Shown here one piece after another: positions 46,187-47,997 of a DNA stretch of 64,000 nucleotides. A program made the position numbers and the translations under genes. Source of the DNA: Escherichia coli O127:H6 str. E2348/69. GTDB lineage: Bacteria; Pseudomonadota; Gammaproteobacteria; Enterobacterales; Enterobacteriaceae. A model generated the notes under the pieces. It saw only the letters and a list, made by a program, of their open reading frames with translations. It ran no database searches and had not been told where the DNA came from. The stretch lies in the NCBI RefSeq assembly GCF_000026545.1, contig NC_011601.1; one strand, given 5' to 3'. The stretch's first letter is position 1, and every line of letters starts with the position of its first letter.

Positions 46187-46791
46187 TATGACAACCTCGC
46201 TGCTGTGAACTCATCTACCGGCGGTTGTGGCTCCTGTGATTCGTTCTGGCTATGTGAGCCAGCGCTCAGGATCACACGGTTGTACATCGTCAGTGCATTG
46301 TTACCGAGATCTGCGCTACCGGTCAGCGCCATATTAATTGCAGCAGCCAGACGCCAGGAAAGCGCCTCCATAAAAATGGCATCATACATATTGACGTCAG
46401 TAACCCGCGCCACGTACTTCAACCACGCTTTCGGCTGATCGGTGTAAATGAGCTTACCTGTCAGTTCCTCATTGGAACCGACAACATATTCAATGCGCTG
46501 CGCAGCGGTAGGATTACGTATGCCGGTCGGCATGATCTCAGTTATACGGACGCAATCAGATGGGTACTGGTAAGCGTACTGCCAGTCAGGAGGCGGGTTA
46601 TTGGTATCAGCCAGCGCCACGCGTTTGGTAGCAAAGTTCCAGTCGAAGTCAGCCAGAGCAGCATCACGACATGCATCAAAATGCAGGGAGCACTGCCCGG
46701 CCTCTTTGCTGGCTTCATTCAGGCTGTTAATGCTACGACTGTTGCCGATATTGCTCAGCGCGCGGTTGCAGATCTCGATAACAGAAGCCAT
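46186..46791 (-). CDS. Tail tubular protein A-like (adaptor)
   Basis: 201-aa ORF; N-terminal ICNRALSNIGNSRSINSLNE resembles T7 gp11 INDILASIGEPPVSTLEG. Confidence 0.45.
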   Translation of the reverse strand: MASVIEICNRALSNIGNSRSINSLNEASKEAGQCSLHFDACRDAALADFDWNFATKRVALADTNNPPPDWQYAYQYPSDCVRITEIMPTGIRNPTAAQRIEYVVGSNEELTGKLIYTDQPKAWLKYVARVTDVNMYDAIFMEALSWRLAAAINMALTGSADLGNNALTMYNRVILSAGSHSQNESQEPQPPVDEFTAARLS

Positions 46792-47129
46792 TAATCATCC
46801 TCCCCACCGTAGAGAGTTTGCGCTGCTGACTTCGGTTGCTCGCCTGATACTGGACTGAGCGCCATATCAGTGATCTGCAGACTGGCGTTATGCTGCATTC
46901 CACCTTCCGCTTCGCGGGTAGAAGTTGAGCGAATAGTTGCCTTTGCGGTGATCATTACTTCAGTGCCAGCAGATTGAGGTGCTGCCTTTAGCTTGGCTAA
47001 CGTCTCGTTGTTCAATTCAATGCAAAGGCCCCACGGATAATCATCACGAGTCTGGGTTTTACCCTCCTCATCCTGATAGGTGTCGGTGCCGGTTTTGAGG
47101 TTTACCAGATCCATAACGGACTCCTGCAA
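46791..47129 (-). CDS. Hypothetical virion-module protein
   Basis: 112-aa ORF with start/stop coupling to its neighbour. Confidence 0.5.
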   Translation of the reverse strand: MQESVMDLVNLKTGTDTYQDEEGKTQTRDDYPWGLCIELNNETLAKLKAAPQSAGTEVMITAKATIRSTSTREAEGGMQHNASLQITDMALSPVSGEQPKSAAQTLYGGEDD

Positions 47130-47165
47130 TAAAGGGGCCGAAGCCCCTTGTTTGATTAGCGAGGC

Positions 47166-47546
47166 TTAGACGCCCAGTTCGGCACGCTTTTCGGCGATCT
47201 CTTTTGCCAGAGTTTCAGCCGTTTTATTGCCCGGCTTCTTGCCTAGTAAATCCTCATACTGCTGTCGAAGCAGAGTAAGGTCTTCACTTACCGCGCCAGT
47301 GCCATCAGATTTCACTTCCTCCACTACTTGATGAACCGCAGCTGGAGATGGAACATTGATAACTACAGAAGCCGATCTTCCTTTACGCTTTTCGGCGATC
47401 TCTTTTGCCAATTTCGCCGCATCGTTCAGTGGCTCCAGCGCCGTACCTGGTTCGCCGTCATACTCAACTTCAGAGCCTTCTGGCCAGAGGTTGTTATGAA
47501 TGTGAGATAAACGCAGGACGCGGTATCTTGCTTTTTCACCTGACAT
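47166..47546 (-). CDS. Hypothetical protein with internal sequence duplication
   Basis: 126-aa ORF containing two copies of LAKEIAEKR encoded by a 25-bp direct repeat. Confidence 0.5.
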   Translation of the reverse strand: MSGEKARYRVLRLSHIHNNLWPEGSEVEYDGEPGTALEPLNDAAKLAKEIAEKRKGRSASVVINVPSPAAVHQVVEEVKSDGTGAVSEDLTLLRQQYEDLLGKKPGNKTAETLAKEIAEKRAELGV

Positions 47547-47556
47547 CGCTATCCCC

Positions 47557-47997
47557 TTAGCCAGTCACTTTTGAACGAATCGGGTAGTACGGGCTGTTGT
47601 TATCAACATCCAGGTTAATTCCCGAGGTGAAAGCACCGGCCGTCAGCGGACCAGTACCGACCACATAGTTAACACGCAGATAACGCTGGACACCTGCCGG
47701 AACTTTCGCGGAAAACAGGCGCTTTCCAGCAGTCAACGCCGCTAGCGCCAACGTGCCGCTATCGTACAGCGTGGTCCAGGTGGAGTTATCCGGGCTGGTC
47801 TGCAACTGAACGTTCAGGGTTGCAGCACCTCCTGCGGTTGCAGTGGTATTCACGTTTGCCCAGAACTCCAGCGGGTAACCAACTCCGATATCACGACGGG
47901 TACCGTCAATTGGACCGAGATCGATTACATCAGTAGAAGCTGCGGAAGCCGTAACCGCCTGCGCTTCGGAGAACATCAACAGTTTGTCGAGGATCAT
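47557..47997 (-). CDS. Putative capsid accessory or decoration protein
   Basis: 146-aa ORF immediately downstream of the capsid gene. Confidence 0.4.
   Translation of the reverse strand: MILDKLLMFSEAQAVTASAASTDVIDLGPIDGTRRDIGVGYPLEFWANVNTTATAGGAATLNVQLQTSPDNSTWTTLYDSGTLALAALTAGKRLFSAKVPAGVQRYLRVNYVVGTGPLTAGAFTSGINLDVDNNSPYYPIRSKVTG

Follow-up and report, generated by a model that had tools for sequence, protein, structure and literature searches.

How does a short coding sequence come to stand twice, letter for letter, within one small gene, and what becomes of the two copies once they are there? The question is raised by a 126-codon gene in the head module of a prophage, found within a 64,000-nt stretch of Escherichia coli DNA that is referred to here as the window. 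A first-pass annotation, made from the letters alone, had noticed the repeat and had offered two readings of its exact identity: that it reflects a recent duplication, or that it forms a recombination substrate from which length variants could arise. Here we deal with the setting of the gene and the extent of the repeat, and then detail how the copies appear to have originated, how they have changed together, and which length variants they have given rise to.

Over the region tested, the window matches E. coli E2348/69 (EPEC O127:H6) with 100% identity. The window has 98.5% identity to the Salmonella phages PAT1, 65FD and 66FD and about 73% to phiV10, TL-2011b and Tyrion, and it is an epsilon15-like (Uetakevirus-type) podovirus prophage of this strain. 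On the minus strand the genes run from a scaffold-like gene (phrog_458) through the GP7 major capsid (PF20911), a Bbp16-family gene (PF21190), phrog_590, and the Gp10-like staple (PF21628) to two tail genes. The description of the repeat's host as a virion-module gene is borne out by these GP7, Bbp16-like and Gp10-like flanks, and the RefSeq annotation of the neighbors agrees with the head-module assignment. The order of Bbp16-like, phrog_590, and Gp10-like or tail gene, downstream of GP7, is also found at other loci (L081, L082, L087-L092 and L095). In one lineage (P0010/P0011; L080 873-1478 and L082 1941-2546) the Gp10-like staple gene is absent, and a 201-aa tail gene directly follows phrog_590. 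In the window, 36 nt separate the 126-aa gene's stop codon from the start of the Gp10-like gene, and in this gap lies a GC-rich hairpin (AAGGGGCCGAAGCCCCTT, 47132-47149), which looks like a terminator or attenuator and might tune the relative expression of head-module genes.

The host gene itself is matched by the phrog_590 profile over its full length, with residues 1-126 aligned to profile positions 1-111 of 111. A Pfam search of the protein gave no match, and the PHROGs entry is labelled "unknown function". Homologues are numerous: the homology search returned 511 matches, and of the 5,426 complete genomes of E. coli, about 500 contain the gene family. The epsilon15, phiV10 and BPP-1-like podoviruses are alike in having a full-length phrog_590 HMM match at the gene between the capsid cement and staple genes, and they share the gene order portal, Bbp19-like, scaffold-like, GP7 capsid, Bbp16-like, phrog_590, Gp10-like and tail tube. 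The LAKEIAEKR repeat, in contrast, is peculiar to one clade among the epsilon15-like members of the family. The literature on the epsilon15 capsid names only gp7 and gp10 (PMC12391199), and a search for literature on the phrog_590 gene in epsilon15-like phages found none. The coordinates of the gene, its neighbors, and its internal features are collected in Table 1.

Table 1. Features of the phrog_590 gene and its immediate neighbors, in window coordinates.
Feature	Position	Strand	Description
Bbp16-family capsid cement-like gene, upstream neighbor	47557..47997	-	PF21190, E=3.9e-43
126-aa ORF, host gene of the repeat	47166..47546	-	phrog_590, E=3.4e-42; RefSeq "hypothetical protein" in E. coli E2348/69
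Small N-terminal beta domain, conserved (residues 1-41)	47424..47546	-	predicted strands at residues 7-39, pLDDT 72-84; many invariant columns
Repeat copy 1	47385..47410	-	gene nt 137-162; LAKEIAEKR, residues 46-54; core of predicted helix H1
201-nt unit	47210..47410	-	copy 1, linker, H2 and start of H3; deleted in the 59-aa and duplicated in the 193-aa alleles
Disordered, length-variable linker (residues 57-86)	47289..47378	-	predicted, pLDDT <50; gap-rich and variable in the alignment
Helix H2 (residues 86-101)	47244..47291	-	predicted; carries the family-invariant Y97, E98 and L100; missing from the 59-aa product
Repeat copy 2	47184..47209	-	gene nt 338-363; LAKEIAEKR, residues 113-121; core of predicted C-terminal helix H3
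Gp10-like capsid staple gene, downstream neighbor	46791..47129	-	PF21628, E=6.9e-45

The repeat had first been described as 25 bp long. The sequence given for it, CGCTTTTCGGCGATCTCTTTTGCCA, is found exactly at 47185-47209 and 47386-47410, so that the sequence, the positions and the duplication are all correct, but the identity in fact runs one base further, to 26 nt. The copies are in frame and 201 nt (67 codons) apart, and both encode, as had been stated, the LAKEIAEKR peptide, within the minus-strand ORF. Identity between them is confined to these 26 nt, and the sequences on either side are unrelated. With up to three mismatches allowed, no further copy of the 26-mer is found in the 64-kb window, and none of 100 dinucleotide shuffles of the window reproduced the match. 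When the codons of the gene were shuffled, the longest direct repeat had a mean length of about 8 nt and a maximum of 12 nt. Given the shared peptide and the module's own codon usage, the probability that the eight fully identical codons would coincide is about 8e-4, which argues that DNA was copied, beyond any mere sharing of a peptide. A second, imperfect direct repeat, of 15 nt with one mismatch, is found between the Gp10-like gene (CAGTGCCAGCAGATT, 46961-46975) and the 126-aa gene (CAGTGCCATCAGATT, 47297-47311), and is probably due to chance.

The two copies encode parts of different predicted helices. An AlphaFold model, built from 45 sequences and of moderate quality (pLDDT 68, pTM 0.34), places copy 1 at the core of a basic helix, H1 (residues 42-55), and copy 2 at the core of the C-terminal helix H3 (residues 110-124), with the linker and H2 between them; H2 and H3 are conserved across the family. 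A PDB sequence search with the 126-aa protein gave chance-level matches only, and Foldseek searches of PDB and BFVD returned nothing significant, the N-terminal domain showing a weak SH3-like resemblance at E>1. A form of 92 aa (L086 2492-2770) occurs naturally in an isolated Uetakevirus, the Klebsiella phage vB_KpnP_BUCT711; this form is without H1 and retains only a short linker. At least some lineages can thus dispense with the H1-linker region, and the minimal functional core appears, from such comparisons, to consist of the N-terminal domain, H2 and H3. A dispensable or plastic region of this kind provides a useful entry to the role of the protein in epsilon15-like virions.

The exact nucleotide identity of the copies is what would be expected of a recent segmental duplication that took in LAKEIAEKR and lengthened the gene. 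However, the gene has not gained length, as its 126 aa lie within the family range of about 111-146 aa. Copy 1 falls residue for residue on the helix-1 segment of relatives, which carry AAKKKADQK, AAKAKAKHK and similar sequences there, and it replaces that segment instead of being inserted next to it. Outside the query clade and the sister lineage L080/L082, the two sites have no more than 1-5 residues of 19 in common, and their in-register exact runs are 2-9 nt long. The placement of copy 1 on the helix-1 columns of relatives, together with the small similarity of the sites outside the clade, therefore argues for replacement and against insertion. Nor does the repeat look recent. It is common to a clade of prophages of E. 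coli, Salmonella and Citrobacter, from which 18 distinct haplotypes were sampled, with a nucleotide divergence outside the repeat of 8.4% on average and 13.2% at most; divergence up to this level across three host genera is at odds with a recent origin. Since the identity is also restricted to the 26 nt, between unrelated flanks, a recent lengthening duplication is extremely improbable, and the first of the two original readings is abandoned. Exact repetition within a phage gene is thus not in itself a sign of recent duplication.

Copy 1 represents the derived state, with relatives retaining the AAKKKADQK type at its site. The sequence type at site 2, ATC GCC GAx AAG CGT, is family-typical at the C-terminus, which points to a main transfer from H3 to H1 and makes copy 2 the likely donor. 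At the second position the Ala codon is GCA, as is typical for site 1 of relatives (the Cronobacter allele L088, for example), and this codon may have moved in the opposite direction, from H1 to H3. The nearest outgroup lineage, L080/L082, is 64% identical, its sister status being taken from overall similarity, and has an exact match of its own, of 15-18 nt, between the same two sites. Its repeat codons read GCT GAG AAG CGG AAA, as against GCC GAA AAG CGT in the query clade.

Following their origin, the copies appear to have changed together. Of the 18 haplotypes of the query clade, 16 carry two identical 26-mers. A synonymous GCC>GCT change (C>T) is present at both gene nt 153 and its partner nt 354 in the same three haplotypes (L089-L091), and a GAA>GAG change (A>G) is found at both nt 156 and nt 357 in L009 and L092. 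The relative L083 has the latter change in copy 1 only and looks like an intermediate state. Within the query clade, the chance that a partner position varies in exactly the same pattern was estimated empirically at about 0.001; the paired changes there are few, amounting to two sites of which one is imperfect. Unpaired changes all fall in copy 1, and comprise a change at nt 159 in L083, an Arg>His replacement in L089, and a 3-nt deletion in P0002. From these it follows that the identity is restored from time to time, under no absolute constraint. The copies also resemble each other within a lineage more than the same copy does across lineages, both in the comparison of the query clade with L080/L082 and in the EPLNDA and YDGEPGS types described below. 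Taken together, these patterns indicate that the copies evolve in concert, via short-tract conversion or template switching; the individual events were assigned by parsimony (L009/L092 against L083, and L056 against L096). Concerted evolution is hereby documented at a very short scale, of 12-30 nt. A search of the literature on concerted evolution of intragenic repeats in phages found nothing directly relevant.

The second of the original readings, that the repeat is a recombination substrate giving length variants, is upheld by public assemblies, in which both of the predicted products, a 193-aa duplication and a 59-aa deletion, occur. The opposite pattern, set down beforehand as copies that had diverged in relatives with no length polymorphism, was looked for and not found. 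The 193-aa allele (L017 = L095 = P0136) contains three 26-mers and two 201-nt units that are 100% identical, and corresponds to the L010 haplotype with an exact duplication of one unit. It is a single observation, on a 42.9-kb JGI scaffold (3300034521, Ga0310137_000398) in which the neighboring head and tail genes are intact. The 59-aa alleles (L093 and L094; P0148/P0149) are exact 201-nt deletions, with 0 mismatches, of an L013-type haplotype and of the window's own haplotype. They come from metagenome contigs that are short and of low coverage, one of 867 nt at a k-mer coverage of 2.47 and one of 2201 nt (ENA ERZ783888, NODE_2020, and ERZ28622085, scaffold_7045), and are possibly assembly artefacts in which a de Bruijn graph was shortcut across the repeat. 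The 59-aa product is probably defective and non-functional, because H2 is lost from it with the invariant residues Y97, E98 and L100. These forms were found by exact-sequence look-up; a homology search with the 59-aa product, in which they were concealed within a 90% cluster, brought up alleles of 86-87 aa instead.

Length variants are rare: among the listed cluster members they account for 3 contigs, or at most about 0.5%, while at least 630 carry 126-aa genes, and all three assemblies of E2348/69 have the 126-aa form. For those who annotate or assemble such genomes, the practical consequence is that the gene may appear with 59, 87, 126 or 193 aa, and that short-read assembly may fabricate such forms.

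The same behavior is seen across the family. Exact in-frame direct repeats of at least 14 nt are present in 26 of 57 distinct alleles of the phrog_590 gene, as compared with 1 of 60 Bbp16-like, 0 of 59 Gp10-like, and 0 of 61 tail-tube alleles from the same loci. The repeats fall into three registers. In addition to LAKEIAEKR, there is an EP[L/I/M]NDA(A) register of 12-25 nt at a spacing of 75-84 nt, found in phiV10-like alleles, and a YDGEPGS register of 21-22 nt at a spacing of 123-138 nt. In both of these types the two copies vary together from lineage to lineage. The Pro codon is matched between the copies, as CCG/CCG, CCC/CCC or CCA/CCA, in all 14 sequences. Further co-variation between copies includes Leu>Ile, Leu>Met, AAC>AAT, GAT>GAC, GGC/GGC or GGT/GGT, and Ser>Gly. 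In the EPLNDA type (type B), 2 variable columns are identical and 3 are near-identical between the copies, against 0.5% in the control. Two alleles that are 95% identical, L056 and L096, differ by two clustered changes, each of which brings copy 2 to the state of copy 1.

Deletions have likewise occurred between the EPLNDA copies. The 86-87-aa alleles P0122, P0124 and P0127 are exact deletions of this kind, and P0122 is present in isolate assemblies. In one prophage that carries the 87-aa P0122 allele (L087 1512-2498), the GP7 major capsid gene is split into ORFs of 220 aa and 73 aa, and this prophage is probably decaying. Other forms of rearrangement are also encountered in the family. The 127-aa allele P0009, from an ENA metagenome, has an unrelated N-terminal domain (MSLSEIPRFKLLEKSFIDGALLDEGTEIEFSGIPGSR) joined at LEPLNDAAK to the H1-linker-C-terminal part of the query clade. 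It keeps both LAKEIAEKR copies, and with its breakpoint in the LEPLNDAAK segment this chimera is evidence of allelic mosaicism. Among Enterobacter-type alleles (P0034, P0054 and P0112), a PEPQ/SQPE tandem repeat in the linker gives rise to 4-aa steps in length (122, 126 and 130 aa), and in the 146-aa P0030 helix H1 contains a tandem duplication, AEQK-AEQK. Such polymorphisms are a further, slippage-type source of length variation in the phrog_590 gene.

In the alignment, the distal copies of the EPLNDA and YDGEPGS types sit 6-9 residues before H2 (L056, L047, L067 and type B alleles), and both types copy parts of the segment at the end of the N-terminal domain, YDGEPGSALEPLNDAA. This shared source segment is a possible sign that a "loop + helix" unit was duplicated within the gene long ago. 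The proneness of the gene to such events is plausibly due to weak pre-existing internal similarity combined with a permissive, disordered middle.

Explanations that place selection at the center have to be weighed against this record. It could be argued that the protein requires the same nine residues in H1 and in H3, for instance for contact with a common partner, and that nucleotide identity is a by-product. Both helices are indeed predicted to be amphipathic and basic, and some of the co-varying changes in the other registers are non-synonymous, with Leu>Ile, Leu>Met and Ser>Gly appearing in both copies. However, convergence of peptides does not account for the identical choice of synonymous codons, with its probability of about 8e-4, or for the pairing of synonymous changes, and most family members work with unrelated H1 and H3 sequences, while the isolated phage manages without H1. 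Convergence at the level of the peptide is accordingly thought very unlikely as the source of the repeat, although conversion could be accompanied by selection for peptide identity. A requirement for the nucleotide sequence itself, with the 26-mer serving twice as a binding site or RNA motif under purifying selection, would be in line with the depletion of variable sites within the two copies, which have 2 among 52 positions as compared with 62 among 329 elsewhere in the gene (Fisher p=0.005). Significance is lost when third codon positions are counted by themselves (p=0.15), and for this reason the depletion was set aside as evidence of nucleotide constraint. Moreover, copy 1 of L083 tolerates two synonymous changes, lineages differ both in the sequence that is repeated and in where it lies, and the element has no Rfam match at E<=1, no complementary partner nearby, and no additional copy in the window, all of which make such an element very unlikely. 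The reading as an RNA element was rejected on the same Rfam and complementarity results. Programmed translational bypassing of the T4 gene 60 type was also considered and rejected, as the intervening 201 nt are open, conserved coding sequence with family-invariant residues.

A further proposal is that the repeats are kept because they raise the rate at which isoforms arise, in the manner of a contingency locus. Second-order selection would then maintain the micro-repeats for the sake of short (59 and 86-87 aa), standard (111-126 aa) and extended (193 aa) proteins. Exact repeats around the same helix and linker region have arisen in three registers in different lineages, deletion and duplication alleles both occur, and a viable isolated phage has a natural short form. 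If the proposal were true, it would represent a contingency mechanism built from dispersed micro-repeats instead of simple-sequence tracts. Against it stand the great rarity of the variants in the listed cluster members, the loss of family-invariant residues from the 59-aa product, and the finding that one 87-aa allele belongs to a prophage that is probably decaying, its capsid gene being split. Neutral conversion, acting at weak prior similarity in a permissive region, is the simpler account, and a selected length switch is regarded as very improbable. Assignment to the contingency-locus or phase-variable class was rejected, as the repeat is a dispersed 26-mer in two copies and not a simple-sequence tract, and the variants make up at most about 0.5% of contigs.

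The reading that we favor, and consider probable, is that the 26-nt repeat arose by, and still serves as a substrate for, misaligned recombination within a head-module gene that tolerates change in its middle part. In the ancestor of the query clade, the coding sequence of H3 was written over the homologous positions of H1, with the length of the gene preserved. Transfer would have run mainly from H3 to H1, with at least one transfer in reverse. Thereafter, both copies have co-evolved, probably by short-tract gene conversion or by template switching during replication, and the exact outcomes of recombination between them, loss of the 201-nt unit (59 aa, possibly an assembly artefact) and its duplication (193 aa), are present in public assemblies. 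The route may involve RecA-independent template switching or slipped misalignment, or else misaligned annealing by phage recombinases. Homogenization could be direct or could proceed through cycles of duplication followed by deletion, in which case the 193-aa allele would represent an intermediate. The same process, operating at other short segments in other lineages, would generate the family-wide hotspot. The support for this mechanism is wholly comparative, and an identity of 26 nt is short for classical homologous recombination. What emerges, between two helices of a single protein, is a conversion tract that is old and maintains itself; the biology is modest.

Several known systems provide points of comparison for misaligned recombination of this sort. 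Repeat-containing surface proteins of bacteria, such as the streptococcal M proteins, undergo concerted evolution by gene conversion or unequal crossing-over. The phrog_590 repeats resemble them in the similarity of copies within an allele, in paired synonymous substitutions, and in size variants that arise by recombination between repeats. In contrast to the tandem arrays of M-type proteins, however, there are here two dispersed and very short copies, which encode distinct helices, H1 and H3, with unique sequence in between.

In E. coli, RecA-independent template switching gives both deletions and expansions at direct repeats of less than 200 bp that lie within a few kb of each other (Romero et al. 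2019, PMC7145654). The present case is like these Lovett-type assays in having exact repeats close together (201 nt), in showing expansion as well as putative deletion, and in having junctions inside the repeat, with one or three copies kept. It differs in scale and setting, as the assays used plasmid repeats of 101-787 bp (PMC7145654) whereas the natural repeats here measure 26-30 nt and reside in a prophage gene. RecA independence was shown in the assays, whereas phage-encoded recombinases may contribute here. In yeast coding sequences, short imperfect inverted repeats are homogenized by polymerase template switching (PMC8604942). In both instances non-identical short repeats are made identical by clustered coding changes, as seen in L056 and L096, but in the yeast work the repeats are inverted and the switch is intra-strand, whereas the phage repeats are direct and give rise to deletion and duplication. 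Seen alongside these systems, the mechanism is of a known kind, the gene family that hosts it is new for it, and within that family it forms a recurrent hotspot.
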